Assembly: GCA_002269645.1 (NCBI GenBank)
Contig: NIVC01001057.1
Location: 186,001 to 250,000 of the forward strand
DNA length: 64,000 bases
Reading direction: 5' to 3'
Source of the DNA: Macrostomum lignano
Taxonomy: Eukaryota
The notes under the pieces are model-generated. The model was not told the DNA's origin and did no database searches. It saw nothing but the letters and a program-made list of their open reading frames with translations. Each line of letters begins with the position of its first letter. The stretch's first letter is position 1. Shown here piece by piece: positions 1,991 through 59,782 of the stretch. The position numbers were made by a program, and so were the translations under genes.

Positions 1991-2499
1991 GAAACAGCAC
2001 CCCAAACAGCACCCCAAACAGCTCACCAAACAGCTCACCAAACAGCTCACCAAACAGCTCACGAAACAGCACCCTAAACAGCTCACCAAACAGCTCACGA
2101 AACAGCTCACCAAACAGCTCACCAAACAGCTCACCAAACAGCTCACTAAACAGCTCACCAAACAGCTCACTAAACAGCTCACCAAACAGCTCACCAAACA
2201 GCTCACCAAACAGCTCACTAAACAGCTCACCAAACAGCTCACTAAACAGCTCACCAAACAGCTCACTAAACAGCTCACCAAACAGCTCACCAAACAGCTC
2301 ACCAAACAGCTCACCAAACAGCTCACTAAACAGCTCACCAAACAGCTCACTAAACAGCTCACCAAACAGCTCACTAAACAGCTCACCAAACAGCTCACTA
2401 AACAGCTCACCAAACAGCTCACCAAACAGCTCACCAAACAGCTCACCAAACAGCTCACCAAACAGCTCACCAAACAGCTCACCAAACAGCTCACCAAAC
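1991..2499. repeat. Minisatellite, 12-bp unit AAACAGCTCACC
   Basis: Tandem units; source of the LTKQ/SSPN/GELF repeat ORFs. Confidence 0.95.
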
Positions 2500-3662: not shown

Positions 3663-5200
3663 GGACTGGCTGCCAGTGAGCAGAGCAGTGGATTGCTAGT
3701 CTGGTCTCCGTGAATGAGGGACTGGCACTGTGAGCAGAGCAGTGGATTGCTAGTCTGGTCTCCGTGAATGAGGAACTGGCTGCCAGTGAGCAGAGCAGTG
3801 GATTGCTAGTCTGGCCTCCGTGAATGAGGAACTGGCTGCCACTGAGCAGAGCAGTGGATTGCTAGTCTGGTCTCCGTGAATGAGGAACTGGCTGCCACTG
3901 AGCAGAGCAGTGGATTGCTAGTCTGGTCTCCGTGAATGAGGAACTGGCACTGTAAGCAGAGCAGTGGATTGCTAGTCTGGTCTCCGTGAATGAGGAACTG
4001 GCACTGTGAGCAGAGCAGTGGATTGCTAGTCTGGTCTCCGTGAATGAGGAACTGGCACTGTGAGCAGAGCAGTGGATTGCTAGTCTGGTCTCCGTGAATG
4101 AGGAACTGGCACTGTGAGCAGAGCAGTGGATTGCTAGTCTGGTCTCCGTGAATGAGGAACTGGCACTGTGAGCAGAGCAGTGGATTGCTAGTCTGGTCTC
4201 CGTGAATGAGGAACTGGCTGCCAGTGAGCAGAGCAGTGGATTGCTAGTCTGGTCTCCGTGAATGAGGAACTGGCTGCCAGTGAGCAGAGCAGTGGATTGC
4301 TAGTCTGGTCTCCGTGAATGAGGAACTGGCTGCCTGTGAGCAGAGCAGTGGATTGCTAGTCTGGTCTCCGTGAATGAGGAACTGGCTGCCAGTGAGCAGA
4401 GCAGTGGATTGCTAGTCTGGTCTCCGTGAATGAGGAACTGGCTGCCAGTGAGCAGAGCAGTGGATTGCTAGTCTGGTCTCCGTGAATGAGGAACTGGCTG
4501 CCTGTGAGCAGAGCAGTGGATTGCTAGTCTGGTCTCCGTGAATGAGGAACTGGCTGCCAGTGAGCAGAGCAGTGGATTGCTAGTCTGGTCTCCGTGAATG
4601 AGGAACTGGCACTGTGAGCAGAGCAGTGGATTGCTAGTCTGGTCTCCGTGAATGAGGGACTGGCACTGTGAGCAGAGCAGTGGATTGCTAGTCTGGTCTC
4701 CGTGAATGAGGAACTGGCACTGTGAGCAGAGCAGTGGATTGCTAGTCTGGTCTCCGTGAATGAGGAACTGGCTGCCTGTGAGCAGAGCAGTGGATTGCTA
4801 GTCTGGTCTCCGTGAATGAGGGACTGGCTGCCAGTGAGCAGAGCAGTGGATTGCTAGTCTGGTCTCCGTGAATGAGGAACTGGCACTGTGAGCAGAGCAG
4901 TGGATTGCTAGTCTGGTCTCCGTGAATGAGGAACTGGCTGCCAGTGAGCAGAGCAGTGGATTGCTAGTCTGGCCTCCGTGAATGAGGAACTGGCACTGTG
5001 AGCAGAGCAGTGGATTGCTAGTCTGGTCTCCGTGAATGAGAAACTGGCACTGAGCAGAGCAGTGGATTGCTAGTCTGGCCTCCGTGAATGAGGAACTGGC
5101 ACTGTGAGCAGAGCAGTGGATTGCTAGTCTGGTCTCCGTAAATGAGGAACTGGCACTGTGAGCAGAGCAGTGGATTGCTAGTCTGGTCTCCGTGAATGAG
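3663..5200. repeat. Minisatellite, 54/56-bp unit GAGCAGAGCAGTGGATTGCTAGTCTGGTCTCCGTGAATGAGGAACTGGC(ACTGT/TGCCAGT)
   Basis: Contiguous near-identical units with no spacers; period 54 measured at 3961/4015. Confidence 0.95.
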
Positions 5201-5465
5201 GAAAAATTCCAAGAAACGTAGTTTCCCGACCTTCTGCCTGAGCAGTCCTTGGGTTAAATTTAAAACCAAAGCGCTTCAAAGCCGCATTGAAACTGACAGA
5301 GCGGCCCCAGCCAGCACGGGCTGCGAGGCCGCTGCCGCATGGCTCACCAAAAAACTGATCAATAACATGCTTGGCATCTCCGGCCTCACAGATCCCCATA
5401 AACAAGCTCAGAAATTTCTGCTTCTGAAACTGGGATCGAACAACGATTGACGAGTCAAATCCCCG

Positions 5466-6018
5466 AGATAAGGAAGAGCAGCTCGGGCTGAGGGGGTGGC
5501 CGAGAAAATCGAACCCCGATCCGCTTATCTCCCAAAACAGGCGCGCCTAATCCCCATTTTTGCGCTGCCGCAGTCCCGCTCCCAGCCTCTCCCCCCCCCC
5601 CCAGTTCCTCGAACCGTCTCACACTTTCTCACTTTTCCCATTTCTCCTCTTCCCCAGCCCGCTGTCCGGGTTGGCCGGGAATTCGGGATTTCTCCCCCGG
5701 CCAGCCAATCGGCCGGCCCCCCGCCGCGCCCCCCCCCCGCTGACGGGAGATCAGTTAAGGCCGCTTATCGCCGGCGCGGAATAAAACCAGCGGTGCGTTG
5801 CGGCAGCCGATTTCGCTCCCAGACTCGCCCGGCAGCCCCAGTCGATAAGCGGCAGATAAGCATTTATCAGGCAGCGGCCGCAGCCAGATAGCCACCGCCC
5901 AGCAGCAGCAGACAGAAGCCGCCTGCAGACGCCTACACTGTGTATAAATACAACAAGCCGCCACCTCCCCCGCGAACTGCAGCACTGCCTACGGCACTCG
6001 CTAAACTTTTTTGTAAGT
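5466..6018 (+). promoter_or_regulatory. Putative GATA gene promoter and short non-coding first exon (left copy)
   Basis: Seven GATA-type sites (5466, 5525, 5765, 5843, 5854, 5864, 5886), CCAAT 5705, TATAAATA 5943, donor GTAAGT 6013-6018; matching acceptor CAG just before the ATG at 8374. Confidence 0.55.
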
Positions 6019-6235
6019 TAATAATAACAATAGAATAATAGGCTTTGTTTAACTGAACATCCATCTGCGTTAGGCAGAGAATCTTCCCAGGTTTCTTTGC
6101 AAAAGCAGATTTTCCTGAGCATCTGCGGCTGGCTGAAGCTCGCCATGGCGACTTGCTTGGTAATTTACGATTTGAAATGACCGACTTGGTCTTTCGGCTG
6201 CACTTCTGTTTCGTTTTCAGGAGTTACAAGAGCCC

Positions 6236-6680
6236 CTATTCCCTCTGCTGATACACCAATTCCCTCTGCTGGCACCCCAATTCCCTCTGCTGGCACCCCA
6301 ATCCTCTCTGCTGGCACCCTAATCCTCTCTGCTGGCACCCTAATCCTCTCTGCTGGCACCCTAATCCTCTCTGCTGACAACCCCAATTCCCTCTGCTGGC
6401 ACCCCAATTCCCTCTGCTGGCACCCCAATTCCCTCTGCTGGCACCCCAATTCCCTCTGCTGGCACCCCAATCCCCTCTGCTGACACCACAATCCCCTCTG
6501 CTGGCACCCCAATCCCCTCTGCTGGCACCCCAATCCCCTCTGCTGGCACCCCAATCCCCTCTGCTGGCACCCCAATCCCCTCTGCTGGCACCCCAATCCC
6601 CTCTGCTGACACCACAATCCCCTCTGCTGACACCACAATCCCCTCTGCTGGCACCCCAATCCCCTCTGCTGGCACCCCAT
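6236..6680. repeat. Intronic minisatellite, 21-bp unit CCCTCTGCTGGCACCCCAATC (mirror 31260-31704)
   Basis: Tandem units; 7-aa periodic ORFs. Confidence 0.93.
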
Positions 6681-7362
6681 GCCTTCGTCCCAAACCACTA
6701 CGAGCGGATGTGAAGTTCAAGCACAGAATCTCATTTAAAAATAAATTCCCCATTTCTAACACCTCCCTTCCTATAGCTCAGGTCCCAGGACTCGCAGGAC
6801 TCAGCATAGAAACGGTCCACATAGCAACAGACCAGGGGGCTTCCACTTGTGTGTTCGTTCCGTGAAAATTCGTTCCGTGGGAATTTCGTTCACGGAAGCT
6901 CTTTATGACTGCGATTATGCTAATGAGCCGTGAGCCCAGCTGCAGCAGCGCGGGGATGCGGCAGCTTCGGGTTGCCGGGCCCGGCCAAGTCAAGCGCGAA
7001 GTCCCCTCTTCTCCCTTCGTCTCCCAGCTTTCTGCTCAAAATATTTTACTGCTTCCATGCAGAAGCCGGCGAGACTTGGGAATTTTATTGGGCCGAGGGA
7101 CCGGCAGGGGGAGGCGATGGGATAAAAATCCCCACTTTCATTTTATACGAAGGGGTGGAGAAATTTATGCCCGGCAATGAGCAGAGAATTAGTCAGGTGA
7201 AAGAAAGCATTTTATGAGAGGATGAGGGGTAAGCATGGGGACTCGGTCAGGGACGCCTCAGACTAGAGCTCTGGACTGGAAACTGAGCTGTGACTTTCAT
7301 CAACTTTAGGCCTGTGGTGAATTTTGCTCACTTACAGCATATTGTGCCTGTAGAGAGCTGTG

Positions 7363-7616
7363 AACACCTGTCCAGAGCAGGGGAACACCTGTCCAGAGCA
7401 GGGGAATACCTGTCCAGAGCAGGGGAACACCTGTCCAGAGCAGGGGAATACCTGTCCAGAGCAGGGGAACACCTGTCCAGAGCAGGGGAATACCTGTCCA
7501 GAGCAGAGGAACACCTGTCCAGAGCAGAGAAACACCTGTCCAGAGCAGAGAAACACCTGTCCAGAGCAGGGGAATACCTGTCCAGAGCAGAGAAACACCT
7601 GTCCAGAGCAGGGGAA
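7363..7616. repeat. Intronic minisatellite, 21-bp unit ACCTGTCCAGAGCAGGGGAAC (mirror 30324-30577)
   Basis: Tandem units; 7-aa periodic ORFs. Confidence 0.93.
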
Positions 7617-8373
7617 GCTGGCAAGGCTGACTAAACTTCAGCTTTTTGGCTTGAGGCGTCCCTAGTTCCATTTTTTGAGTGTCCCACAGCCTTCTGTGCC
7701 AGCAGTTCAAGCACTTGCCTTAATTGCTCAAAGCATGGAGCAACACGGTATTACATGTACCAAAGTTGATACAAGTTCATGTGGGATTTCAGAGCAGCTG
7801 GTGCAGTCAAACGGAGCTCCAGATATTCTGTTTAGAGCTCCCTGACTCTGGAGGACAAATTCTGCAACAGATGGGATCAGGGAGCGCCGACTCTGCTGTG
7901 TCTCAGGGCGGGATTTTATGCGTCCATAGAGTGGGATTAAACTGACAACCGGCCGCTTTTATCCCCTCCCGATTCCCCACAAATATTAAATCCCCATCTA
8001 TTCAATTCCAACCCGTGTCAGGTTGAAAATCTGCTTTTGTAGGTGAATTTGTTGATTTTTCAGCAATGACACGCATCCGACGCGCCCCCATTGTGTTGGG
8101 AAAATTCTGGCTGTCTGGGCTGCTGCTCCCGTCACCTACACATGCTGATCTCAGCTCACCCCCTGCCACCGTCTCCTTTCTCTCCATCTCTCTCTTTCTC
8201 CCTCTCCCCTTCTATCTCCTTTGTGACTCGTTCGCGTATTGTATTTTTCTCCATCTCTACTCAATCTCCATCGCTCCCTCTCCATCTCTACTCGATCTCC
8301 ATCTCTCCCTCTCCATCTCTACTCAATCTCCATCTCTCACACTCGCCCCCCTCCTGGCCTCCGTCCGTGCAGC

Positions 8374-11300
8374 ATGGAGATCCTCCAGGCGCACTCCGGC
8401 AGGGACTGCGGCGCGGTGCAGCAGCCCCCCTACTCCTGGCACCACCGGACCGTCGGTGGAGACGTCGAAGATCCCTCTTCGGCTGCTGCAGCTACAGCGG
8501 CCGCCACCGCTGCCGCCGCCGCAGCCGCAGCGGCAGCCGCAGCTGCCGCGGCCACGACAACGACAGCATCGTCTGCAGCTGCGGCAGCGACCGCAGAGTC
8601 GGACTGCTCCGGAGTCAGCCAGTCTGCTGGCCAGCGCCTGACTGACAGCGGCGACGAGTCTCCTGAGAAGTTCATCCAGCAGCAGCATCAGCAGCACCTG
8701 GCCGGCGGCGGCTGCGCAATGCCGCATCACCACCAGGAGTCCGGCCTGTTCGGCGGCGGCGCCTACATGTCCGGCCAGGGCCAGCCAATCAAAGCGGAGC
8801 TCGGGCTGGGCCAGGGTGAGTCTGGAGCTCCCGTCAGGATTCCCAATTGCAGATCCCAACTGGCCCGTTCCTCACTAGAAAATGGCCGCGACCGTAGCAA
8901 CAAAGGAATAATAAACGAATCTCTCATTAAAATGTGTGCAACAAACTAAATAGAAAACCAGCCCTGAACCATTGTGTCTCACAGTACTCACAGTACTCAC
9001 AGTACTCACAGTACTCACAGTACTCACAGTACTCACAGTACTCACAGTAGTCACAGTATTCACAGTACTCACAGTACTCACAGTATTCACAGTACTCACA
9101 GTAGTCACAGTATTCACAGTATTCACAGTACTCACAGTAGTCATAGTCCCCACAGTACTCACAGCAGTACATTACCTTCTTCCATCGCGCAGACGCCATT
9201 GGCTACCCGGTGGGCATCCAGACCTGCTGGTCGAACTTCCCTGACCCGGCGGCGCAGCAGCACCAGCTGCAGCAGTACCAGCAACACCAGCTACAGCACC
9301 AGCTGCAGCACCAGCACCACCAGCAGCACCTGCAGCACAGCAGCAGCGGCGGCAGCGGCGGCAGCGGCGGCAGCAATGGCTTTGGTTTCGCTTTCGGTCA
9401 CCAGCCAAACTCAGAGGCCGGCTTCCCGGGCTCGTATCCCGCCAGCTTCAGCTCCCCCTACCAGCCCTACTTCCCGGCAGCCGCAGCGGCCGCCGAATAC
9501 GCCAGGAACCCGCTGGGGATTCACCCGTCACTGTTCCGCATGAACCCGCAGCACCAGCACCACCAGCACCACCAGCACTATCCAGGACACCTGGTTGGAC
9601 GCCTGCACCAGTTTAAGGCTCGGGCCAGGAACGCCTCGGGTGAGAATTTCGTAGCTTGATCTCATGGTGTGATCTCAATGGTGTGATCTCATAGTGTGAT
9701 CTCTTATTGTGATCTCATAGTGTGATCTCATAGTGTGATCTCATAGTGTGATCTCATAGTGTGATCTCATAGTGTGATCTCATAGTGTGATCTCATAGTG
9801 TGATCTCATTGTGTGATCTCATAGTGTGATCTCATTGTGTGATCTCATAGTGTGATCTTTCAGAGTGATCTCATAGTGTGATCTCATAGTGTGATCTCAT
9901 AGTATGATCTCATAGTGTGATCTCATAGTGTGATCTCATAATGTGATCTCATAGTGTGATCTTATAGTGTGATCTCATAGTGTGATCTCATAGTGTGATC
10001 TCATAATGTGATCTCATAGTGTGATCTCATATTGTGATCGCATCTTAGAGCGCAATCTCTTCCAATTGAATCCCATAGAGTGATCCCATGGACCAGCGAT
10101 CCTATTGCATAATATTACAGTATGTGTCCCCGTGCCATCATCCTTCAGCACTCACTGCCGCACAACCCCACAGAGAGTCGCGAGTGCGTGAACTGCGGTG
10201 CCACGGCCACCCCACTGTGGCGCCGGGACGGAGGTGGCCACTACCTGTGCAACGCATGCGGCCTGTACCATAAGATGAACGGGCAGAGCCGGCCGCTCAT
10301 CAAGCCAAAACGGCGCATGGTGAGCAGGGGCTCGAATCTTTTCGATCACTCCCGATCCGTCACTCACAATCCGTCACTCACAATCCGTCACTCACAATCC
10401 GTCACTCACAATCCGTCACTCACAATCCGTCACTCACAATCCGTCACTCACAATCCGTCACTCACAATCCGTCACTCACAATCCGTCACTCACAATCCGT
10501 CACTCACAATCCGTCACTCACAATCCGTCACTCACAGTCCGTCACTCACAATCCGTCACTCACAATCCGTCACTCACAGTCCGTCACTCACAGTCCGTCA
10601 CTCACAATCCGTCACTCACAGTCCGTCACTCACAGTCCGTCACTCACAGTCCGTCACTCACAATCCGTCACTCACAGTCGGTCACTCACAATCCATCACT
10701 CTTAGTCCGTCACTCACAGTCCGTCACTCACAATCCGTCACTCACAGTCCATCACTCACAATCCGTCACTCACAGTCCGTCACTCACAGTCCGTCACTCA
10801 CAATCCGTCACTCACAGTCCGTCACTCACAATCCGTCACTCACAGTCCGTCACTCACAGTCCGTCACTCACAGTCCGTCACTCACAGTCCGTCACTCACA
10901 ATCCGTCACTCACAGTCTGTCACTCACAGTCCGTCACTCACAATCCGTCACTCACAGTCCGTCACTCCTACCCACACGCAGTCGGCGCAGCGCCGCGCCG
11001 GCACGACCTGCTCGAACTGCGCCACCACGCAGACGACTTTGTGGCGCCGCAACCACAAGGGCGAGTCGGTGTGCAACGCCTGCGGCCTGTACTTCAAGCT
11101 GCACCAGGTGGACCGGCCCATCAGCATGAAGAAGGACTCAATCCAGTCGCGCAACCGCAAGAGCTCCATCAAGAGCAAGAAGAAGAAGGAGCTGGACGCG
11201 ATGAGCGACCTGATGCGCAGCGCCATGCACAGCTTCCAGTTCCCGGCGGCGAACTACTTCGGTGGAGGCGCCGGCAGTGGCGCTAGCGCCGGCACCGTCA

Positions 11301-42200: not shown

Positions 42201-44348
42201 CGTCTGTGCGTCCAGTGCGAGCTAAAGTGAACTCTTATTTTGTTGTTGAGTCGGACTACTCGGAATGCGGCCTCGCATGAAGGTTGTTTGGACTCAGTGC
42301 GAAATGAGATTCGGGCTAAGCTAGACTTTGCACTGAAAGGAGCTCAGACACTATACGAAGGGAGCTCAGGCACAGTCTGAAGGGAGCTCAGACGCGAAAT
42401 GAAGGGAGCTCAGGCACTGTATGAAGGGAGCTCAGACGCGAAATGAAGGGAGCTCAGGCACTGTATGAAGGGAGCTCAGAAGCGAAATCAAGGGAGCTCA
42501 GGCCCTGTATGAAGGGAGTTCAGACGCGAAATGAAGGGAGTTCAGGCACTGGATGAAGGGAGCTCAGACACTATATCAAAAGAGCTCAGACACTATATGA
42601 AGGGAGCTCAGGCACTGTATGAAGGGAGTTCAGGCACTGTATGAAGGGAGTTCAGGCACTGTATGAAGGGAGTTCAGACGCGAAATGAAGGGAGTTCAGG
42701 CACTGGATGAAGGGAGCTCAGACACTATATCAAAAGAGCTCAGACACTATATGAAGGGAGCTCAGGCACTGTATGAAGGGAGCTCAGGCACTGTATGAAG
42801 CGAGTTTAGGCACTGTATGAATGGAGTTCAGGCACTGTATGAAGGGAGTTCAGACGCGAAATGAAGGGAGTTCAGGCACTGTATGAAGGGAGCTCAGACG
42901 CGAAATGAAGGGAGTTCAGGCACTGGATGAAGGGAGACCAGACACTATATCAAAAGAGCTCAGACACTATATGAAGCGAGTTTAGGCACTGTATGAATGG
43001 AGTTCAGGCACTGTATGTAGGGAGTTCAGACACTGTATGAAGGGAGCTCAGACACTGAGACACGTACCTCTTCCAGGAAGGCCTCAGCATAGGGCAGTTT
43101 ATCCTTATCAGCGTAGGAGGCGTCCCCGCCTGCGGCTTCGAGTTCCTCGCGCAGCCGGCGCTGCGCCTCAGGGTGCAGGGAGGCGAGCAGCAGCGCCCAG
43201 CGCACCAGGTTGGCCACAGCGTCGACTCCTCCAGTCATCAGGTCGAAGATCGTCATGGCCAGGCGGCCGTCGCGCATGGACGGAGCCGCAGGGTCGTCCG
43301 GCGCCGTCTCTGCCGCCGTTGCCGCCCCCGTGGCTTCGTCGACTGCTGCGTCCCCGGCGGCGTCCCGACGGCCGCTGTCGTTCTCGTCGTCGCTGAAGTA
43401 GTTGGTCTTCTCGCGCAGGTAGAACTCGATGTAGTCTGAGTAGTCCCGGCTGCACTGCCGGGCCAGCGCCGCCCCGCCCGCCTGCTGGCTGTGGCGGAGG
43501 CTGCGCCGCCGCTTGTCGATTTGCTCCTGGCACATCCGCAGCGCCTCCATGACCAGCGGCTCCGGCCGGCCCAGGCACAGCAGTCGGCGAACGGCCGGCC
43601 CCAGAGGCCAGGGCAGCTTCCCGAGGCGCCTCATCAGAGTCTGGGCCAGGCTGAGCCGGTTCTCCTGTTCGATGGACTGCATGAGCGGCAGCTTGGAGTA
43701 GAAGCGCTCGTCGTAGGCCACCTGCTCGCAGCCGAAGATCATCCGGCTGATGACGGCGCTGACGCTCTGAGTCACCAGCTCGCCGACGTCCAGCTCGGCC
43801 GAGCGCAGCTGCGGCGCCGGCCCGGCCGGGAGGCGGTCGCGAATCTCCTGGACAATCTGGCGCGACTCCTCGGCCACGTCGGCCTGACAGGCCGGCCGGC
43901 CCCAGCCGAAGTCGTTGAGAGCGCGGACGCTGAACGTCCGGTGGGCGCGCCAGAGTTTGCCTTCGCTGAGGGCCAGGCCGCCGACCTGCTTGCGCCAGGG
44001 CAACTGCGGCCGGCCCAGGAGGCTCTCGTTGAGGAAAACCTCGCGGATCTCATCGTAGCCAGAGACGATCACGGCCAGGTGGTCGGGGAAGCGCACCTGG
44101 ATCACCGGGCCGTAGCGCGCCTTGCCCTCGCGCTCCACCCAGCGCCACAACGGCAGCTCAACGTGGAAGTGGCTGCCAATCAACGGCCAGGCCGGAGGCC
44201 CGGGCGCGTCGCAAGTCACGTGACGCCGGTTGCGACGCCGAACAGCCAGAAGCAGCAGCAGAAGCAGAATCAGGCCAGGCAGAAGCAGACTCTTTGTCAG
44301 CGACGATTGCCCGCCGTTGCCGCCTTTGCTGTTGTCCTCGTGTCCCAT
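39259..44348 (-). CDS. Cytochrome P450 (clan 2-like), 588 aa; exons 43068-44348 and 39259-39744
   Basis: N-terminal anchor plus PPAWPLIG hinge, WxxxR (LWRAHR), ExxR split by a phase-0 intron (EE|VQR), PDRF, heme motif PFSLGKRACPG; GT-AG junction. Confidence 0.92.
39923..41786. repeat. Intronic 21-bp minisatellite ATGGATCACAGACCAGACACA
   Basis: Tandem units in the CYP intron; source of the MDHRPDT/CVWSVIH ORFs. Confidence 0.95.
42346..43057. repeat. Intronic 22-bp minisatellite TGAAGGGAGCTCAGGCACTGTA
   Basis: Tandem units abutting the CYP donor site. Confidence 0.92.
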
Positions 44349-45302
44349 CTGGAGGCCGCTTCGCCTCGGCCCGCGGGAAGATTCGGGTTGCCAAGGGGAT
44401 TTGCGGTTCTCAACAATGGGGCCCGGTGAGGTGGGGGGAAGAAGGGAGAGTTGAGCAACCGGTTCGGCCTGGGAAAGAGCCTCAATTTGTAGCAGCGGCT
44501 CCGCCGGGGGGCGGCTCTACCTGGGAATATGGAAGACGCATCAGAAAAAGTAACTCTGGCTGTTTCCCGTACTCTGTCTTGCGCTGCCTGTCTCTCCTGT
44601 TTTCTCCAGCGCAGGCCGTCTCTGCCTCGGAGACGGCCGGCCACCCGCCCGCATTTCAACTACAGCAGCAGCGCCCACCCCCTCCGGCCCGGCCCAACCC
44701 CGGCCCTCTGCAATTCTCTTTCTGGCTTTGGCGCTGCACTGCGCAGAAGTGAGCTGCAGAGGGAGGGTGGGGTGGAGAGAGAAGGGGGGACTTGTGGCGG
44801 AATGCGCGGGCTGCAGCGAGTGGCAGGGCGGGTGAGAGCTGGATAAAGCGCAGCAGTGCAGAATGAAATACTAACAAATGCAAAGGGAGGCTGCTGCTTT
44901 ATCTGCCTTGGCATTGTTCGCAGTTGTTCGCCACCTCAGGCCCGCAGCGCTTAATCTCCGTTTCTCCCCCTCCTTTCTCTCTCTCTCTCTAAATCAGGGA
45001 AAAGTACATTTAAACTTAGAAGTGCGCAGGAACAGCGCAGGAAGCAGAGGGTGGGTTTGCAGGGGAAGTCGCACTGCTGAGTGCGTACTGACTGAGACTG
45101 GGTGGGTGGGAACTCAGCACTGCTCCACTCTGCTCCACTGTCACACTCAGGTCTTCTAGTTTGGCGGATAAATTTTTTTGGAGGGGGTGGGGATCTAAAG
45201 AAACCCGCACCGCACTCAGGCGGTGACAGGTAGGAACAATTAGACAGCTGCAGGTCCCTGATTGAGGAGACCACATGCGAAACTGGGGTGTTTGAAGCAG
45301 GC

Positions 45303-46449: not shown

Positions 46450-46507
46450 ATGAAGGGCGGCAGACCTGGGGTCAGAGAGTTTGCCCAGCGGTCGGCTTGG
46501 CTTCTCC

Positions 46508-47583
46508 TGTAGAGTGTTCTACCTCCCGTAAGAAGACATAAAAGTGTTAATGTACTACTCACACATTTTATTTAGTAGTAAATTGAAGAGCATGAATAAA
46601 GGTATGCTTTGAACTATAAGTATATTCGGACTAACCAATAGAAAGAGAGAAACCTCGAGCATGCTAATTTTAGAAATCACCCAATCACGTGCGACCAACA
46701 ACTGTCAATTCAAACCCCACCTTCAAGTCATCATTTGGTTTGCACTCGGGTTGCACCCGGATGAACCAATCAAAGTCTACCAGCTACGGTAACCAATCAT
46801 GCGCTTTTACAGTAGACTAGTTGCGCAACTTTCTACCCTGTCATGCTTGACAGCCACCGAATCGTGACCCTTTGACATTTGCGAAGACAGTGATGTACGA
46901 CCTCGAGAGAGGTCTGAACGCCTATAAATACAAGTGGTCCGGAACGGACCCGGAGCCAGAAAATCTCCAAGGGAGAGAAGCTCCGAAGAGGAAGCTCTAG
47001 TGAAGCCTTCCTGAAGAAACTCGCGTCGTGGACGAGTTCTTGCGGTAAGCCTTACTCATTTGCGCCCGTTGGTTGAGACGTCTCGCTCAAGTCTATTGAG
47101 ACTTGAGTTTATTTGAGTCTGCTGAGACTCTTGAGTCTGTTTAGACTCCACTGGTTGCAGTCTCCAGAAGGACTGCCCCTGATAGATCTTAGAAGACTAT
47201 CAGTGGTTTCCGGAGCCATACCTAGAGTGCATAGAGGCACTACTAGAAGGAGTAGGCTTATATTAAACCGCAGTTTGGCGCAGGGATCCCCATTGTTAAT
47301 TTGGAAGCTTCCGATTGGTCCGAACTACAGATACCGGCCGGCAAGAAGTCAAGAGGACAAAGGAGATAACGGACCAGATCAACTGTTACCAGGCGCCTAA
47401 ACTTCCTGAAGGACAGGAAAGTTACTGATCGCGATACTACGGACGAGGATTATTACGAGAGCTCTCATTTAAGGACTCAAAGGTAATTGAATACCTTCAT
47501 TTGATTACTGGGTTGCCTAGCTACAGAGCTAGAAGTGATTGTTCCTTGATTACAGTTGAGGACTGGTAATAAGGAACACATCA
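46508..47583 (+). repeat. 5' LTR (1076 bp)
   Basis: Starts TGTAGAG, ends ACATCA; several CCAAT boxes and TATAAATA at about 46924. Confidence 0.95.
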
Positions 47584-47600
47584 ATTGGTGATCTCGCCCT
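47584..47600 (+). other. Primer-binding-site-like sequence (TGGTGATCTCG...)
   Basis: TGG two nt after the LTR end; cognate tRNA not identified (partly Trp-like). Confidence 0.55.
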
Positions 47601-48279
47601 CTCGGCACTACTCAAACTTTTGAGCAATAGCCTGGCCAAGCTATTGTAAAGTGACGAAAGAGCGACTTCATTAATTTTGCGCGCACGTGTTAGAGGTAAC
47701 ACTTTTCGACACTTTTCGATTTTTGTACGATTTGAAACTCGAGTAAAAGTTTAGATATACAGGCTTGAGTACCTGTCAATTTTGAGTAACGTTTGAGCAC
47801 GCGTGTTAAATTTTTGTTTTTATCGAGCTCGAGCAAGAGTAAACCTTAAACAAAACCGAAAACAACGTCCGGTACACTGAAAACAAACCGAAAAATAATC
47901 AATACACACTAAAACAAAACCGAAATTAAAAACACTTGACGAAAGCTAAAACAAACCGAAATTTGATAAAACGTGACAAGGCACGTCACGAAGACAAGAA
48001 AGGCCTTTGAAAAAAGCAAGAAGCAGCTGCACTTCAAGCACTTTAAAGATACACTTTGCGGGACGCCGCATAAGTGCGAAAATCAGCCAGCGAATAAGAG
48101 GTCAGAAAAAGCAGCCAAAAGCCGAATTCCGTTCAAGGTCAGACATAACAAATTGAGGTGTCAAAAGCGCCGCGAGACAATCAGTTACAACCGAAGTTTA
48201 TTTCGAAAGAAACACCACACTGGAAGATCCATTACAAATCGACCCAGACCTAGAGCTACCGTTCTATCCCATCAACAAC

Positions 48280-49260
48280 ATGGCGCGGCGCAATCCAACG
48301 GTGCACAGAGATATCAAAGAGACAGTTGGCACCTTTTCTATGGAAAAAGACTTTAACACCTTTGTTGATCATTTTGACCTGGTATGTAGGGAATACAACC
48401 TACAAAATCCAGAAAAAGCGCAACTGTTGCCACCACTCCTCCAAGGCACTGCACGAGAGATTTATGGTAAACTAGATGCGGCAACACAGCAAAACTACCC
48501 AGCATTAATCATTCAACTGCGCGCGCATTTCAACCGCTGTGGCACAAACAGATCAGTGCTACTGCACAAGTTGCATAACAGAAGGATGCAGCCAACCGAA
48601 TCCTTCCTGACCTTTGTGGACGACATCCGTCAGATAATTAAGGCACTGCATCAGCCAACACTGCCAGCTGCAGACCAACCACCTCTGGGTGCGGCAGAAT
48701 TAGCCGCTAGAGAGCGACACGATTGATGGATCGCGAACAAAATCTGATTCTGCACGTAATAAACAATGCACAGCCGTCACTCCGAGATAGACTTCTACGC
48801 GAAAACATTGAAACCGAGGAAGACCTTTTACGGTGCGGAATGCAGTGGGAAGCAAGCGCTCCACTAATGACAACCGGCAACACAGAAGTGCAGAAACTGA
48901 CACAGCAACTAAACAAACTGATGCAACATCAAACAGCCGTTATCGCCGAACAAAAAAGACGAAATGAACGAGCCCAAGCCAGATGCTATTACTGTGGACG
49001 AGAAGGACACTACCAAATAATTGTCCTCATCGGTCAACAAGAAATGATATGCCGCGACAGCCATTCAACAGACGGAAGCCGCAAAAACCATGGCAACAGC
49101 ATCAAAATTGGCAGCAGCAAAACACGAAACGCTTCGGAAACAATGGCTACAGACCGCGAAACGCCAGATACATGCCCAAGCAACCAACGCAAGCGATGCA
49201 ACGATATGCAAACGCCATCACGTACACACCGGAAAGCGAACAGCAAGAGCAGCAAGTCTT
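48280..49260 (+). CDS. gag: Gag: Ty3/Gypsy capsid plus CCHC zinc knuckle (frameshifts at about 48722 and 49012)
   Basis: FNTFVDHF...LLQGTAREIY...L.NRRMQPTESF capsid pattern; CYYCGREGHY/(P)NNC knuckle restored by adding one base. Confidence 0.8.
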
Positions 49261-49929
49261 CACGATAGACGACTTAGAAATGGACTTCACTATCAATGAA
49301 ATCGACTGGCTCGATGCGGAGAGCAGCGAAAAGACAAAAAACATCAGCATGGTCGAAATGAAAGAAACTAACATTGACAGCGAAGAAGAAAAGACAGAAG
49401 TGAGCACAGAAAAAACATTGCCAAGCGACATCAGTGAAAGAAAAGAAGAAACAAACAAAGGCAACGACAAAGAACTGGCAACGAAGGATGACAACGAAAG
49501 AAGCAACGACGGAAATACAGAGATGGAAGAAGAACAGCAAGAAGAAAGCAGCGATCACGATTATGAGATGCAGAATGACGCTGATGACAACCAAGCCGCC
49601 GACAAAGAACATGAAGACGGAAGGCACAAAGGAATGGAAGAAAGAAATCTAAGCTCCGACAGCGATCAATGCTACGAGATCCGATATAAACGAAATGGTG
49701 AAGCCTACATTCAAACGGTCGACTACAAGGCCGAAGTGAGGTACCGCAGACAATGGAGTGACACAACTACAACATCGGAAGAAAGCAAGGAAGAAAATGA
49801 TGAAGACGACAAGCAGCGGAACGAATCGGATGCCTTGCGCTCGGAAACGCCAATGGAACAAGAGGAAGAATACGATGCGGACGTAGAAGATAACGAATGG
49901 CAGCCGCAGCCAATGCCAGCAAAGACAAC

Positions 49930-52020
49930 GGCAACGTTCAGAAAATGGCGATTCTGGATATTCTGGATCATCATAATACTACTGACGGCAGTAGTCACCA
50001 AAGCAACAGCAATGGAAAACCAATGATATGTCCAACGGATGCGCATATCCAACCGATGATCTACAAGATACCAACCGACATCAAATGCAGCTACTTCAAG
50101 ACAAACCAGACGAAGCCAAAAAGATCACAATCGATCTCTACAAAGCCAACATCAAGAAGCATCGACAACTTGGAATCGTGTGCTTCAGAGACAAGCACCT
50201 AGTCGAAAAAATATGGCGAGGACAATGGAACAGAATCCGATTCCGACAGCATGAGCTACATGTGTCGCACGCTGACTGCCTACGATGGAACCAGACATTG
50301 TTCTCCAAAGATGGTGTACTAGAACCTGATGAAAAGGTCGGCAACGCACAACTCTTCCGAACAAAGAATGTGGCAAACGGTCGATATGTCCACTATAATG
50401 AAAGATGGCCTGACTACACGGCACGCAACAGCTACCTAATCAGGAATATTCCATTCTACCACAATCCTTTTGAAAAAATGGAGTCGCTACAACTGCAATT
50501 AAGTGACTGCCGATACAGCAAAGGATGGTGTCCAACGCCGATACTGCGGAATGAGGAACTATACAGCTTACCGTTGAGTCCAACATATCATCAAGACTAT
50601 CGATGGCAAATTATACGCAGAGGCGACTCACGATATGAAGAACCATCTAAGTCACGACAATACTTCTTCGCGTGGAAGTTGAGCCGGAAATTGACTGCAA
50701 GCTTCAAAAGTATCACACAGTTGAAGGAGGCTACTGTCAAACACGTTTTTGGCAAAGTCAGGAGACTTGGCACTGACGTTTCAAAAGAAACCAGTCGAGC
50801 AAAAACTGAAATGCAAGGATACAGACAAGACACTATTCATCTCGGAACAAGAGATACCAGTCTACGTAAAAGATGACGACAAACAAACCTTTCTGGCGAT
50901 CATCAACGGAACTTATCAACAGCAGGAACAACAGAACAGACGACGACGAGACATCGAACGTCCCAAACTGGTGTCAAACCGACTACTGTCAGCAAAGATA
51001 ACGGCTTTGGATCACAATCTACACAACCAGTTAAACCACTTGCATCGAACACTGGTCCAGCTAACTTGCAAAATGCACGCAATCAACTTAAATTATGCCA
51101 GACAAAACTACTATGTCAACCCTACGATGACTTTTCGTAAAATCACCGGAATGACGAACGTTTTGGCAGTTCCAATATACGAGCATCTGTTGATATACAA
51201 GTGCACGCCGATACAGCACTTTAACATCTTGCCGTCGAACACGTCAACAACCTGCTACGACAAGCCAAGGATTGAAGCGTTCTACGAAGGAAAACGAATT
51301 CAGGGATTCTTGGACACGGTACACAACATCATCGTTGGCACCGCAATACCGAGACCTTGCACCACGGCAGCAAACTATTATCAACTGGACAATGCACTAC
51401 ACGTCATCAAAACAACTGGAACGACAGCAAACATCACAGAACCGGAAGTAATCGTCGACGAAAACTACGACATGGAGGATTTGAAAATCCGATTCAACAG
51501 AACGAAGTATACGCCATTCGCCGATATCCAACTTGACGAGATAACACCAGGATGGACGATCAACGACTTCTTGCAAGCGTTCATCACCCAACGCAAGATG
51601 ATTCACCAGCTGTTCACAAGAAAGGACAAAGGAACCGGGACAGGAAGATTTCCCGTCCTTGTTTCAATGGACAGCGCCATCAAATCATTTTGGACAAACA
51701 GCTTCTGGGAGCTGCTCAATGGAAGAGGCAGTCTCTATCAAGGATTCATCTTCTACGGTGCTTGCATTGTGTGGATTGTCACGGCAATCTTCATCATTTC
51801 GTCGATCGTACGGTGCTTCAGTCAAACTTGTCCAAGAGCTAAGAAGACAGTGAATGCCATAATGCAAAGAACGACAACGGAAGGCGACAACAGTTTAGAA
51901 CTAACAGAAACTGCACATCGTGAGGTTCAAGGGCAACCGACACTAGCAACGCGGCTATATCCATCGATTCCGACAACACCAACGGCACCAAGAATACAAC
52001 CACCTAACTATCAAGCAGAA
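49930..52020 (+). CDS. env: Envelope glycoprotein, class III (herpes gB-like); signal, ectodomain, furin site, TM, tail; four frameshifts (about 50020, 50120, 50677, 50750)
   Basis: Hydrophobic signal RFWIFWIIIILLTAVVTKATA; RRRR|D at 50938; N-glycan sequons NQT, NGT, NTS, NIT, NRT; gB-like blocks TCK...NPT...ITG...LIYKC and CYDKPRI...GFL...RPCT; TM at about 51742-51810. Confidence 0.75.
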
Positions 52021-52049
52021 CAGCAAGACCCAAAATGGCCAGAGAACTA

Positions 52050-55000
52050 CGTATGTACTCTACACGCCGAAATTGGCAAAGCCATGGCTCAAGTGGTAAT
52101 CAACAATCTACCATGTCGAGCGCTACTCGACTCCGGCAGCTCCATCACAGTTATATCAAAACAACTGTGCAACAAGCTACGACTTGCTCTACGGCCAGCA
52201 ACAATCGCAGTTGCAGGAGCAGGAGGACATTCGCTAAACATTCTGGGAAAAGCCGACATTGATTTAAGAATCGCTAATAAACATTTGACAGTTCCACGTA
52301 CGTCATCGACAGACTCCCAAACCAGGACGTTATTGTTGGCATCGACACGTTCAAGCAGCTTCGACTACCATTGACCTTCGACTTCAATAAGCAAACGTTT
52401 AAGATCGACTCGGTAGAACAACCATTGATCAACCAGATCCGAGTACTACCAAAAGTAACATTGCAACAAGATGTCATCATCCAACCGGAGAGCGCCTGCT
52501 GGATAAAGGCAAAGGCAACTAACGCAACGGAGGAAGCAATGATATTCGACCCAAACAGAAGAGTCACGGCTAAACACCAAATTATGATGCCTACGGCACT
52601 AGTACTGGTTGCAAAAGATAAACAGCTGCCAGTACAAATATTCAACCCGAACACAGAAACGGTTCATCTACGACAAGGAATGTGCATCGGTCATCTCAAC
52701 ACCCAAGCATCGGTTATGCTGATTGAGCAAGCGACTCCACGACTAACAGAGGAAGAATTTCAAAAGAAGATCAATTTGGATGACAGCCCGATTACGGAAC
52801 AGCAAAAGAGGAAAGTTCGACAGCTGTTGTGGAAGTACAACGACGCTTTCTGCCACCATGACTACGACATCGGACGAGCCAAGGACATCAAACAGGAAAT
52901 CAAACTTCTGCCGCACACGGAACCAATTCAGTGCAAACCGTACCCGATCGCCAAGCATCTGCAACAGCACTTCGATGAGATTATCGACAAAATGCTGAAA
53001 CACGGCATCATCAGCAAAGCCATTTCAGCATACTCATCACCATGTCTCTTGGTGCAAAAGAAGGAGACTAACGAAAGACGACTCGTATGTGACTTCAGAC
53101 TACTGAACAAGTACATACCGACGGATCAGCAAAGCCTACCGAAGATCTCCGAACTACTAGCAAAGCTCAACACGGCAAAATTGTTCACAGTGTTCGATCT
53201 ACGTCATGGATTTTGGCAAATTGAAATCGAGAAAGAGTCACGACAGTACACGGCTTTCAAAACCTACAATGGACAAGTATACGAGTACAATCGATCGCCG
53301 ATGGGACTCAGCAACAGCCCAGCAACGATGAGCCGACTAACAGCATACATGCTTGCAGGATGCACGAACCTGTTGCACTATGTTGACGACATCTTGGCCT
53401 ACGGAGAAGACTTCGAACGACTCTATGAAGCGACGGAGAAGGCCCTCGCGCTTATACAACGTCAAGGTCTGAAGCTACAACCAACTAAATGCAAATTCTT
53501 CCGAGACAACGTGCGTTACCTGGGACATCAGGTGACAGCCAAAGGAATTTCACCGGACCCAGACAACGTGGATAAAGTGAAAAAGTTTCCTACGCCAACT
53601 AGCAAAACGAAGGTCCAATCATTTCTTGGACTTGCGCAATACTTCCGAAAGTTCTTACCCAACTTCGCGAAGACAGCAAAGCCGCTGTACGACCTGCTCA
53701 AGTTCGACAAATGGAAGCAGGAGAATTGGACACAAAAGCAACAAGAAAGTTTTGACGAAATCAAACGACAGCTGACATCAGACGCACTGCTACAGCATCC
53801 GGACTTCGACAAACCCTTCATCATCGAGACAGACGCCTCAGGAACGGGACTCGGAGCAGTCCTACTACAGGAAACTGAAGACAAAAAGGAACGACCTATA
53901 GCCTACGTCAGTCGAGCACTTAAACCGAATGAGACAAAATGGTCAGCTACGGAACGAGAACTACTAGGAGTTCTGTTCGCCCTACGACAGTTTCACTACT
54001 ACATCTATGGATCTCCATTACAGACGATAGTACGCACAGATCATGCACCGCTGACCTACGTCGTAACTACAAAAGGACAAACAAACAACCGACTCATCAG
54101 GATGACACTCAAGATCCAGGACTACAACTACAAGCTCGTCTACAAACCAGGAATTACTAACAAGGCCGCGGACGCCCTGTCAAGAGCCTACGAAGTCAAC
54201 GCCATTCATCCAATCCCTAACATCAAGGAATTGGTGGATGAGACTGAACACGACAACTTCTACATAGCAGTTAAAAACAACGACAAGGACATCAAGCTCA
54301 GCCCCGTGGAACGAAAATTCCTGCGCAAGCAGCGACAACATTTAACAATCAACAAGTCACGACTCTACTGGATGAGTGACAACAAACCTAAAATCTACAT
54401 GCCATATTCGTTTAGGCAGGCAATTCTCAACGAGCTGCACGACAACCCACTCGCTGGACACCTGTCGGCAGCCAAAACCATTGCAAGAGTGGAGCAATAC
54501 TACTTTTGGCCAAGCATGCATGGCGACATCAAGCAGTATTGCAACAACTGCCACTCATGCGCAGCATCAAAGACAGGACGACGACAAAAACCACAGCTAC
54601 AATCGATACCAAAGTCAACAACTATGGACTGTCTCAGCATCGACATCACCGGACCGCTGCCACCGAGCTGTCTCCATGGCATAGCCTACACCTACATCCT
54701 AACAGCCTTGGACATTTTCTCAAAGTTTGCTATTGCCATACCAATACCGGACATCACAGCTCAGACAGTGGCAATGGGTTTCTTCAACGACATCATCTGC
54801 AAGTACGGTACGCCAAAGAACCTCACATCGGACAATGGATCGCAGTTTACGTCTCAACTCTTTCAGCAAGTGGTGAAGATCCTCAACATCACGCAGATCT
54901 ACACATCGACCTACAATCCGAAGGCGAACATGGTTGAAAGGTTTCACCGCAACCTACACGAGATGATTACACACTTCGCGCATCAACAACCGGACGACTG

Positions 55001-55613
55001 GATCATCTATCTGCAAGCAGTAACAATGGCCTACAACAGCGCTATTCATCGATCAACGGACAATACGCCATTCTTTCTAATGTTTGGGCGAGACTTCCAG
55101 CCGCCAAACCTATTGGCACAGCAACTACTACCATCGCAATATGTGGAAGTCCCGACGTCCATTCAAAAGTTCGTCACGCAACTACACCTCGCATGGAAAG
55201 TAGCCAAGCACAACATCGACAATCAGGTGGCTCTAACCACCGGCACCGACACGAGATCGACAACTCTGACAGCCGGCGACATCGTCTACCTGCACTATCC
55301 GCCGCAACAGACGCACAAACACGCACAGAAGTACAAAGGACCATATCGAGTGGTCCAACTAACGTCACCGACAACGGCACGCCTGGCCAATGTGCAAGAT
55401 CCTCATCAGCACCAATTCTACGTGCACATTCATCGACTAAAGAAGATCAACACTGACACGACAACGTTTTTACCGTCACTAGACAACGCTGATCGCACGC
55501 GTTCGGCGAACCGCCACATCGCAACAAAACACGAGGAGACACAAACATCAACCGAGAACAGCAACACGGCTACAATCTGCGACCTCGTTAAGTTGCGAAA
55601 ACAACCCGTGTAG
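52050..55613 (+). CDS. pol: Pol: aspartic protease, RT, RNase H, integrase (one frameshift at about 52294)
   Basis: ALLDSGS (52129); DFRLLN, DLRHGFWQI, PMGLSNSP, YVDDIL; ETDAS, ERELL, TDH, ADALSR; HDNPLAGH/CHSC, IDITGP, SDNGSQF, VERFHR, GPY. Confidence 0.97.
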
Positions 55614-55702
55614 AGACCGGGTCAGAATAGCTCTACAGCTTCGCAAGCTTGTCGTAAGAGGCGACTAATCTGAGCGACTTCAAACTTCAAGCGACGACGA
55701 CA

Positions 55703-55915
55703 ATGGGCAACGCACTGTCCAAACAGGCGCCCCAACTACAGCAACTCTACGAATGCCCAATATGTTTAACTGATGACTTGGCTGTCAAGCCACCAATTAT
55801 TTGTGAAAACAGACATCGCATATGCGGACAATATTTAAGCGACTCACATTATATTCAGCTCTGGCAGAATTGCCCGATAGGTAGAAGTAGTTTGCGGCAG
55901 TGCGCCTATTGTTAG
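55703..55915 (+). CDS. 70-aa accessory ORF: N-myristoylation motif plus degenerate SINA-type RING
   Basis: Strong start context ACAATGG; MGNALS; C18xxC21...C34xxxH38xxC41xxY44...C57PIG60R plus terminal CxxC. Confidence 0.55.
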   Translation: MGNALSKQAPQLQQLYECPICLTDDLAVKPPIICENRHRICGQYLSDSHYIQLWQNCPIGRSSLRQCAYC

Positions 55916-56133: not shown

Positions 56134-57208
56134 TGTAGAGTGTTCTACCTCCCGTAAGAAGACATAAAAGTGTTAATGTACTACTCACACATTTTATTTA
56201 GTAGTAAATTGAAGAGCATGAATAAAGGTATGCTTTGAACTATAAGTATATTCGGACTAACCAATAGAAAGAGAGAAACCTCGAGCATGCTAATTTTAGA
56301 AATCACCCAATCACGTGCGACCAACAACTGTCAATTCAAACCCCACCTTCAAGTCATCATTTGGTTTGCACTCGGGTTGCACCCGGATGAACCAATCAAA
56401 GTCTACCAGCTACGGTAACCAATCATGCGCTTTTACAGTAGACTAGTTGCGCAACTTTCTACCCTGTCATGCTTGACAGCCACCGAATCGTGACCCTTTG
56501 ACATTTGCGAAGACAGTGATGTACGACCTCGAGAGAGGTCTGAACGCCTATAAATACAAGTGGTCCGGAACGGACCCGGAGCCAGAAAATCTCCAAGGAG
56601 AGAAGCTCCGAAGAGGAAGCTCTAGTGAAGCCTTCCTGAAGAAACTCGCGTCGTGGACGAGTTCTTGCGGTAAGCCTTACTCATTTGCGCCCGTTGGTTG
56701 AGACGTCTCGCTCAAGTCTATTGAGACTTGAGTTTATTTGAGTCTGCTGAGACTCTTGAGTCTGTTTAGACTCCACTGGTTGCAGTCTCCAGAAGGACTG
56801 CCCCTGATAGATCTTAGAAGACTATCAGTGGTTTCCGGAGCCATACCTAGAGTGCATAGAGGCACTACTAGAAGGAGTAGGCTTATATTAAACCGCAGTT
56901 TGGCGCAGGGATCCCCATTGTTAATTTGGAAGCTTCCGATTGGTCCGAACTACAGATACCGGCCGGCAAGAAGTCAAGAGGACAAAGGAGATAACGGACC
57001 AGATCAACTGTTACCAGGCGCCTAAACTTCCTGAAGGACAGGAAAGTTACTGATCGCGATACTACGGACGAGGATTATTACGAGAGCTCTCATTTAAGGA
57101 CTCAAAGGTAATTGAATACCTTCATTTGATTACTGGGTTGCCTAGCTACGGAGCTAGAAGTGATTGTTCCTTGATTACAGTTGAGGACTGGTAATAAGGA
57201 ACACATCA
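56134..57208 (+). repeat. 3' LTR (1075 bp)
   Basis: Differs from the 5' LTR by one G indel and one A/G substitution that I could find. Confidence 0.95.
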
Positions 57209-59782
57209 CTCCATCAGCGTGAGCAACTGCTCAGGAAAAACAGGAAAATTGGCTACAGGGAAAGAAAATTATCGGGACGGGAGGATCTTTGCCAGAAAGA
57301 AGCCGCGGAGCAATCTGCACCTGCTGCTTCAAGGGGAGGGGCGAAGGCGAAGGGGAAATGAGATTTTCGATGGGCCCATCTGCTTCCAAGGTCTGCTAAC
57401 CCTCGATCTTAGGGCCGATTCGAGCTTCGACCAGAGGGCTGACACGATTTGATTTTTGTTTGAGAAGGGGTGCGCAACGAAATGTAGTCCGCGTTCTTGA
57501 ATTTCGTGTGCCTGCGTTGCCCCTTTCCGGCGCAGCAAAAACATTTGTTTGGGGGGAATCCACTTGGTGGATCAACTGATACGCAAGCATGCAGCAGCTT
57601 ATAAGTTTCTAAAGACTTCCATGTGTGTCTTGTTTTCGGTTATGATTTTTATCTACTGCATAAATTAAAACGAGTTAAATTTTTAACATTGCAAAACCAC
57701 TAGACTGCCCGAGCCTTATACACATACGCGTACATGTACAGCATTATGCACACCTCTATATCTTATAATGTTCGCTTATATCAACTCTAAAGTTGCATAA
57801 ACAAAGGCCTTCCCTCTTATCTGAGTGCTCAGTGGAGGCTATTTATATACTAGCTGCTAGGCTTGTAAATGTAAATGTAAATAGCAATTAAAGTCTGATC
57901 CCTCAAAACTTTCACCAGCCTTTAGTATATCACTCCAAACCAATGCGGCTTAACTCGACATTACTAATGCTTACACTCATGCTACTTTCAGTAGAAAAAT
58001 GTGTATTTGCAAGGATTATAAAAAACTGAAAAGATATGATAAGCCAGCCAGCCAAAAAGAAATTGAAGAGAAAGATATTGACTGAACAACTTTATGGTAA
58101 AAATTGGGGGAGAGCGTTATCATTTTTTATCAACTAAAATGGAATCAACTTAGTACTAACTTGTACAACTTATGTACATGTAAGATGATCGAGTTGGCCA
58201 GTGTCAACTCAAGCACTGGAAATTGAGCCCGAAGTAAAGCTATGGACAATAGCTAAGTCGCGGCGTCCTTTAAAATAAATTTCCCTTGTCCTGTCCTTTA
58301 CCTCCCAGTGCTTTAGGCTTTAATCCACAAAGGAGTATTTCATAGGGGACATTTACACTCTCATCGACAGTTAAAAATAATTTAAATTTGAAATCAAGCA
58401 CCAGAATCTGTAGAAAGCGACGTAAAAAGCATTTCAACACTTCGTACTTGTTATAAAGTGTTTATTTTTTGGTTTAATTTAAAAAATCAAAAGTAATTTA
58501 AATATTAAAAAAACTGTTTGAAAATTAATATTACATGGCGGAAACGAACATTATAAAGTCACAAAGAGTGAAAAAAATCAACGAACGTGCAAACAAGCCC
58601 TCCTAAATTAACACCTGAATAAACCCTGAATTAGATGAGATTTGGTCAGTAACCCTTATTTATTTACATTTTCTTAGAATAAAAAATATCCTCTGCTTTT
58701 GGTTTGCTTATGCATAATCATAATGATGAGGGTGTATAGCTAAATAGAATGCTTCTTAAAAAGTAAACTAGTAACAAGCCCTCTGCCTATACAGTAGAGC
58801 CTACTAACTAGTTAATAAAAATGAGTTGTATGAAATATTGTTATATGTATGCTAGAATCCAAAGCCCAATAAGGTTTTATAGTTACTAAGTTAATTCTAC
58901 TAGGCCTAGTCTCCTTCCATGGGCCATGGCCTTAGTATCTAATAGTACTATCATAGGTATAAATCCATTTTTTCTATGTTTAGATCAATTAGAGCCTAGT
59001 TGAATTAAAATTATTTAAATTAGCAACTCAAAATCCATTGGCCTAGCCAACTTGATTTTAAAAAATTAATTTAAAAAATGCCAAGTTGCTAATTTGTAAT
59101 TTCAAGAATATGACTATATTTAAGGCTAAGCCTATACATTGCTTATATTAGGGACTTACAAGTAGGGAATGCAACCTGGGACCCTAGGATCCCAAAATCC
59201 TAAAATTGGGCTCAAATCCTAGGATTCTAAATCCCAAGATTTTGATTAGGCCTAAATCCTAGGATCACAATTATCTGGTATTCAAAAATTTGAGGATTGA
59301 CCATTGGTATCTTAATCTCAGTTTGGAAAAACTCAATCATTTATTCTCAAATAGTACTACCTATAGCTGATTGAGCTATTTGTCAGGTGAAAATCAACAC
59401 CTATTTTGTCTTGCTGTGATTTATTTATCTTTTAAGCATGCAGACTAGTGAGAAAGCTAAGGCTGCAGGGATACAAAACTAAAGTTATTGGCTAGATTGT
59501 AAGGAGATTTTAAATGTAATAATATACATATAGCCATATGCATACATTATTTATAGACTAATATAATTATTATTAAAAAACTTGTGCATAGAGCCTAAAG
59601 CAATAAAAGTCAATTCCTCATTGTTTTCAATTGCAGCGCTATAGCTTGCTAGATGGGAGTCAAATCATTCTTCATTTGAACTCTCCCTCTATCTCAAACC
59701 TAGCTAAAACCAGGGGGGTTTTAACCTTGTATTGATCAGAAAAAAGACCTCATTCTTAGCACTGTCAGGACACCCTTTAGAT

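Follow-up and report, generated by a model that had tools for sequence, protein, structure and literature searches.

The window analysed here, a 64,000-nucleotide stretch of DNA from Macrostomum lignano, carries on its plus strand an LTR retroelement whose domains follow the order gag, env, protease, reverse transcriptase (RT), RNase H and integrase. A short cluster of motifs of the viral late-domain type lies in the linker joining its envelope (Env) to its protease. The relevant features are the following.

46508–47583, plus strand: 5' LTR (TG...CA, 1076 nt), with the target-site copy CTCC before it at 46504–46507
47586–47597, plus strand: primer-binding site, 12 nt equal to the entry for Platyhelminthes_Rhabditophora_Mlig_errantivirus_2
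48280–49030, plus strand: gag, with capsid and a CCHC zinc knuckle near 48984; frame broken in this copy
49030–49951, plus strand: acidic spacer from nucleocapsid to first hydrophobic segment, predicted cytosolic, with basic residues before that segment
49952–50011, plus strand: first hydrophobic segment (by hydropathy), a presumed signal anchor or internal signal peptide
50012–51741, plus strand: envelope ectodomain of class III (herpesvirus gB-like) fold, with a furin-type RRRR at 50938–50949 and five sequons; frame broken in this copy
51742–51798, plus strand: second hydrophobic segment (Env membrane anchor)
51799–52050, plus strand: Env-to-protease linker of about 85 residues, predicted cytosolic, its C-terminal end being the conserved KWPENY
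51955–51969, plus strand: LYPSI, a YPx[L/I] motif (ALIX type); YPSI unvaried in 27 of 27 distinct copies, first position L or M
51979–51990, plus strand: PTAP motif (TSG101 type), intact in 26 of 27 distinct copies
52000–52011, plus strand: PPNY, a PPxY motif (WW/Nedd4 type); P, P and Y unvaried in 27 of 27 copies, x being N, T, G or I
52051–52340, plus strand: aspartic protease (LLDSGS at 52123–52140); frame broken near its end in this copy
52281–55613, plus strand: rest of pol, with RT (YVDD at 53379), RNase H and integrase
55703–55912, plus strand: 70-codon remnant of a RING-like accessory ORF
56134–57208, plus strand: 3' LTR, with the target-site copy CTCC after it at 57209–57212

The two LTRs are one indel and one substitution apart, and this near-identity together with the 4-nt target duplication indicates that the insertion is young. 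In the window's copy the coding sequence is interrupted near 48.7, 49.0, 50.0, 50.8 and 52.3 kb, which leaves six overlapping frames; natural copies in the same genome (G000) include several with a single gag-env-pol frame of about 2,460–2,540 codons (at most 2538 among 117 matches). The element has the marks of a GAG-ENV-POL gB-type Ty3/gypsy element: LTRs, target-site duplication, primer-binding site, gene order and a gB-like ectodomain between hydrophobic segments are present in the window, and open frames and multiple copies are found in its family. The ectodomain matches Pfam PF24664 with an E-value of 1.3e-5 (24 bits, under the cut-off of 27), and for a model of the ectodomain of one natural copy (pLDDT 71) the top Foldseek matches were all herpesvirus gB, with an E-value of 5.9e-19 for HSV-1 gB at a TM-score of only about 0.25. 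Identity is 94% with a UniRef polyprotein labelled Macrostomum lignano, which has the same three motifs. Because of this polyprotein and the primer-binding site identical to that of Mlig_errantivirus_2, the element counts as already known, and the question addressed here is the motif cluster.

Downstream of pol, natural copies (L033, L050, L036–L039) have a pair of ORFs in tandem in which Cys/His patterns of RING-like type recur; the remnant in the window corresponds to the first of them. This ORF starts with MGxxxS, a possible myristoylation signal, in the window's family and not in another in-genome family, A2; its interpretation as an arenavirus-Z-like myristoylated matrix protein, as a general feature, was rejected on the absence of the MG start in A2. 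Within the 5' LTR, a GT..AG joint skipping 286 nt (47045–47330) occurs in contigs of two presumed-RNA runs and not in those of an unlabelled run (X17); it lies downstream of a TATA-like box near 46923 and is probably an intron of the leader. Contigs of three presumed-RNA runs and one unlabelled run cover the element and are uninformative on expression level or on the absence of a spliced env message. The window also holds a large inverted duplication (168–36774) with arms of up to 2,650 nt, 97–100% complementarity and many minisatellites, and a minus-strand ORF (43026–44516) that resembles a cytochrome P450 exon.

Translation of 51955–52011 on the plus strand gives LYPSIPTTPTAPRIQPPNY, exactly as in the preliminary description, which had placed LYPSI, PTAP and PPNY within 19 residues between the transmembrane segment and the protease. 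The cluster is held by a 549-codon frame (50725–52374), with the second hydrophobic segment upstream and the protease LLDSGS downstream, and its position is that of a linker joining Env to protease in one frame, not of a free Env C-terminus. A cytosolic linker is suggested by the pair of hydrophobic segments, by six basic residues that precede the first of them and by the protease that follows the second in frame. All three motifs match the late-domain consensus P(T/S)AP, PPxY and YPx(n)L/I (PMC8402826, in excerpt; the L/I form appears in a reference title in PMC2171039), which bears out, at the sequence level, their earlier identification as late-domain motifs. P[TS]AP and PPxY occur once each across the three plus-strand frames of 48101–55700. 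When the 85 residues of the linker were shuffled 200,000 times at constant composition, all three motif classes appeared together once and two or more appeared 388 times; this test is post hoc, and the comparative tests therefore weigh more.

Within the window's family, all of the 30 best-matching copies have the three motifs (YPSI, PTAP, PPxY) at equal spacing. Variation was scored in 27 distinct DNA sequences, obtained from 97 loci by way of 44 ungapped stretches from anchor to protease. Only one of the 10 core motif positions varies, in a single copy that has lost the T of PTAP (L060), with six synonymous codon states present, whereas 32 of the remaining 68 positions of the linker vary (Fisher p 0.026; 0.008 when a variant must be seen two or more times to count). 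Two gapped copies outside this set (L068, L069) also keep the motifs. The motifs thus look to be under purifying selection in the window's family; since the copies are related, and some non-motif neighbours in the cluster are unvaried too, conservation within the family is supportive rather than decisive.

Further GAG-ENV-POL families in the same genome were found by linker, PF24664 and RT searches, and one representative was taken for each of nine env families other than the window's. Their RTs are 38–82% identical to that of the window's element and form several deep branches in a tree of loci from this genome only. P[ST]AP is present in seven of the nine linkers (0.26 expected) and YPx[LI] in six (0.40 expected); PPxY is present in none of the nine, and one (L052) has no motif at all. 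The order in families A2, A2b, B2, C1 and C3 is P[ST]AP then YPx[LI], which is reversed in the window's family, where PPxY is present as well. Such swapping of motif order between families is expected of short functional motifs that turn over, and the order P[ST]AP, YPx[LI] probably came first, the window's family having reversed it and added PPxY. One A2 copy (L037) reads PNAP, and two B-type copies with a broken linker (L046, L081) were left out of the scoring. In families A2 and B1, PPxY (plus YPPI in B1) sits in the spacer before the first hydrophobic segment (L036, plus-strand frame 1457–8965; L038; L040). Across 11 in-genome families, the linker motifs are found immediately upstream of the protease, with 12–49 residues left to the end of the linker. 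A WP dipeptide before the protease (52033–52050 in the window) is shared by 10 of the 11 env families of this genome and by nine of 29 protease-delimited distant linkers (from 150 of 203 matches listed), and may mark a cleavage junction.

Elements of other kinds served as controls, all of them short or from other lineages and of low power, and none an env-less sister of the families above. The pre-protease segments of seven in-genome env-less elements contain no P[ST]AP, no YPx[LI] and one PPxY, and nine library spacers between nucleocapsid and protease (411 residues) contain no P[ST]AP or YPx[LI], with 0.12 expected. PPxY occurs in non-env elements too (L073, L075–L078), and four env-less gag frames hold it.

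Distant relatives, at 20–30% identity, came from a HMMER library search alone (1.84 billion representatives), and all counts from this set refer to the 150 of 203 matches that were listed. Of 151 proteins, 65 matched the ectodomain and 45 yielded linkers; the 20 left out were P0001, which belongs to the window's family, 15 whose anchor was unclear, two that were too long and two that were too short. Among these listed matches, the 45 linkers hold 17 motifs against 2.67 expected: at least one motif in 14 linkers, two classes in three, three classes in none and no motif in 31. Since the motifs were part of the search query, a fair count takes the 26 linkers found by the ectodomain alone, which hold 10 motifs against 1.42 expected, or eight against 1.40 without the same-host protein P0003. 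In these 26 linkers (150 of 203 matches listed), P[ST]AP occurs three times against 0.21 expected and YPx[LI] five times against 0.73, and PPxY, with two against 0.47 (p 0.083), is not significantly enriched. Another 12 membrane-to-protease linkers, also from the listed matches but lacking an env match, hold 10 motifs against 1.1 expected; this set was put aside, since the motifs in the query could have selected it. One of the seven distant YPx[LI] matches (P0028) is on the membrane boundary, and a protein labelled Haemonchus contortus (P0126) has PTAP in its linker.

Near-miss patterns in the distant linkers are at background among the same 150 of 203 matches (YPx[not L/I], seven against 7.95; PPx[FWH], one against 2.30; P[not T/S]AP, two against 2.14), and so are generic sorting signals (YxxPhi without P, 19 against 19.96; dileucine, four against 3.91). 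P[TS]xP without A is slightly raised (nine against 5.67, p 0.12). The exact forms also exceed their anagrams in these linkers, with five PPxY against at most two, seven YPx[LI] against at most two and five P[TS]AP against at most one; the exception is [TS]APP, found five times, which overlaps P[TS]AP. In the spacer between nucleocapsid and first hydrophobic segment, the motifs are not enriched in the 21 such proteins among the listed matches (two against 0.78, p 0.18). The copies and families are related, and all these p-values overstate independence for that reason. The preliminary description had proposed as a check the conservation of the motifs across family members despite divergent flanks. 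Within the window's family this is borne out, the core motif positions being almost unvaried among the 27 copies while the flanks vary, and P[ST]AP and YPx[LI] also recur in deeply diverged env families and distant relatives. The triple as such is confined to the window's family (83–100% identity) and found in no linker of the nine other in-genome families or of the 45 distant proteins (from 150 of 203 matches listed), and conservation of PPxY is seen within the window's family only.

Host TSG101, ALIX and WW-domain genes are present in the same genome. A full UEV domain is found at three loci and aligns to human TSG101 of solved structure (E 1.3e-44); Y68, N69, V89 and M95 are kept, and H and V stand in place of Y63 and F142, residues that line the PTAP groove. 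An ALIX V domain is also present and aligns to the solved human structure, with the KFY segment, which has a role in YPxL binding, retained. WW-domain matches number 87, counted irrespective of linkage to a HECT ligase. A complex prediction for the host TSG101 UEV (L090) and a 40-residue linker peptide gave a score of 0.08, with the mark at 0.34, and carries no weight for or against binding. A minisatellite beside a host TSG101 exon (L090:2091–2606) translates to repeated YPSI, and a four-letter motif can therefore arise without meaning.

Judged by these comparisons of sequence, the motifs are not a product of chance; they are selected motifs of the late-domain type in a known kind of element. 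We think it fairly probable that the cluster is a p6-like late-domain segment, predicted to be cytosolic, that would draw TSG101, ALIX and a Nedd4-type ligase to a polyprotein threaded through the membrane and so let it bud. Counting against this reading are the 31 of 45 distant linkers (150 of 203 matches listed) and the in-genome family of L052 that lack any motif, the confinement of the triple to the window's family, the PNAP of L037 and the lost T of L060, and the substitutions at Y63 and F142 in the host UEV. The polyprotein would thread the ER membrane twice, and because of these two passes both Gag and the linker with Pol would be cytosolic, Gag hanging from the first segment in place of a matrix domain and the linker and Pol hanging from the second. 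Gag in the window's family has no N-terminal glycine, no PTAP and no PPxY, for which reason the first segment may stand in for the matrix domain and the linker for p6. The cluster would then be displayed by every chain on the inside of the forming particle, at the site where its neck has to be severed; host TSG101, ALIX and Nedd4-type ligase would be recruited there, ESCRT would cut the neck, and the protease would later free Pol near the WP-NY junction.

Three other readings need to be weighed. The motifs could bind the same ESCRT/Nedd4 factors to sort or remove Env, by endosomal or multivesicular-body sorting, lysosomal turnover or exosome-like export, without cutting a virion neck. Their place on the cytosolic side of a membrane protein would suit this, as would the fit of YPSI to YxxPhi, the suggestion of ubiquitin handling in the RING-like ORFs of the window's family, and the endosomal/exosomal routes taken by ZAM particles (PMC3383448, in excerpt). 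Sorting of Env is nevertheless unlikely in our judgement, as only the exact late-domain forms are enriched in the distant linkers (150 of 203 matches listed), with YxxPhi without P and dileucine signals at background, and the Gag of the family has no PTAP or PPxY of its own. A flexible Pro/Thr-rich linker could also match short patterns by chance, or be conserved for protease cleavage or another partner: the motifs have four or five letters, proline is frequent in the linker, the WP before the protease is another constraint nearby, and among the listed matches 31 of 45 distant linkers lack a motif and P[TS]xP without A is slightly raised. This reading is very improbable, given that composition-keeping shuffles of the distant linkers (150 of 203 matches listed) still leave a roughly 6- to 7-fold enrichment, that anagrams are mostly at background, and that the other predicted cytosolic spacer shows no comparable excess.

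The remaining reading concerns origin and is compatible with a function in budding. Lentiviral p6 also sits just upstream of the protease, as do the motifs in the 11 in-genome families, and the segment could be an old p6-like end of Gag, stranded next to the protease by an insertion of env between nucleocapsid and spacer; it would then never have moved to Env and may still act in budding. We regard this origin as quite improbable, as P[ST]AP and YPx[LI] are absent from the seven non-env pre-protease segments and the nine library spacers, controls of low power that are not env-less sisters. The proposal in the preliminary description that the motifs were relocated to the Env tail or spacer found no support as a move from Gag, and its inference of ESCRT budding and extracellular particles is supported in part, on the side of motif sequence, conservation and predicted location.

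Late-domain function of the linker would bear on how these elements are transmitted. It is possible, though we stop short of calling it probable, that the gB-type GAG-ENV-POL retroelements found in invertebrates such as flatworms and nematodes are genuine enveloped viruses and bud by a third design, in which one chain passes twice through the membrane, no matrix domain is used and late domains stand on the Env-protease linker, the motifs being repeatedly gained, lost and reordered and PPxY lying on either cytosolic side of Env. Nematode GAG-ENV-POL elements were reportedly treated by Sacco et al. in 2022. HSV/gB-type elements of this kind have been published as Ty3/gypsy 'errantiviruses' for Nematoda, Bryozoa and Platyhelminthes (Chary and Hayashi, PMC13524379); the terms ESCRT, late domain, budding, cytoplasmic and polyprotein do not appear in the main text of that 2026 survey, and its Discussion calls the transmission of most such elements elusive. 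A 2012 review stated ESCRT use by env-bearing Ty3/gypsy elements (errantiviruses) as unknown and mentioned a YXXL-type motif in gypsy Gag (PMC3383448, in excerpt), and the LTR elements of the same species are covered in PMC12801592 (in excerpt), without discussion of env. No published description of late-domain motifs in these Env-protease linkers turned up in searches of openly readable papers. The element type is already published, and what appears to be new is the motif cluster as a putative late-domain segment. The excess of exact late-domain motifs in one short linker across the clade offers a 19-residue handle on the formation of extracellular enveloped particles and, if the budding reading is true, would extend ESCRT hijacking to invertebrate metaviruses, with late domains working from the Env-Pol junction.

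Among known systems the closest is Platyhelminthes_Rhabditophora_Mlig_errantivirus_2, which has in common with the window's element the gene order, a gB-type ectodomain between two hydrophobic segments, many near-identical copies and the identical 12-nt primer-binding site. Late domains are known from HIV-1 p6 (PTAP, LYPXnL), RSV p2b (PPPY), EIAV p9 (YPXL) and the matrix proteins of filoviruses and rhabdoviruses, and are portable and position-independent in their action (PMC8402826, in excerpt). The window's motifs are of the same three classes as the retroviral ones and likewise stand close together in a short stretch rich in proline, within a polyprotein processed by a protease. The retroviral, filovirus and rhabdovirus late domains belong to Gag or matrix proteins; the putative ones described here come after the Env anchor and share a frame with Pol. 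A precedent for late domains in a membrane protein is bluetongue virus NS3, a two-transmembrane viral glycoprotein whose PSAP and PPRY bind TSG101 and NEDD4 (PMC7409164, in excerpt); NS3 differs in that it serves egress as a non-structural protein of a dsRNA virus without an envelope, rather than being a fusogen joined to Gag and Pol. In foamy viruses, Gag lacks a signal for membrane targeting and depends on the leader of Env, which has type II topology (PMC7828637, in excerpt), an Env-dependent budding that resembles the one proposed here. The foamy virus Gag and Env, however, are separate proteins with the late domain in Gag (PMC8952818, in excerpt), whereas in the window's element the link between Gag and Env would be covalent.
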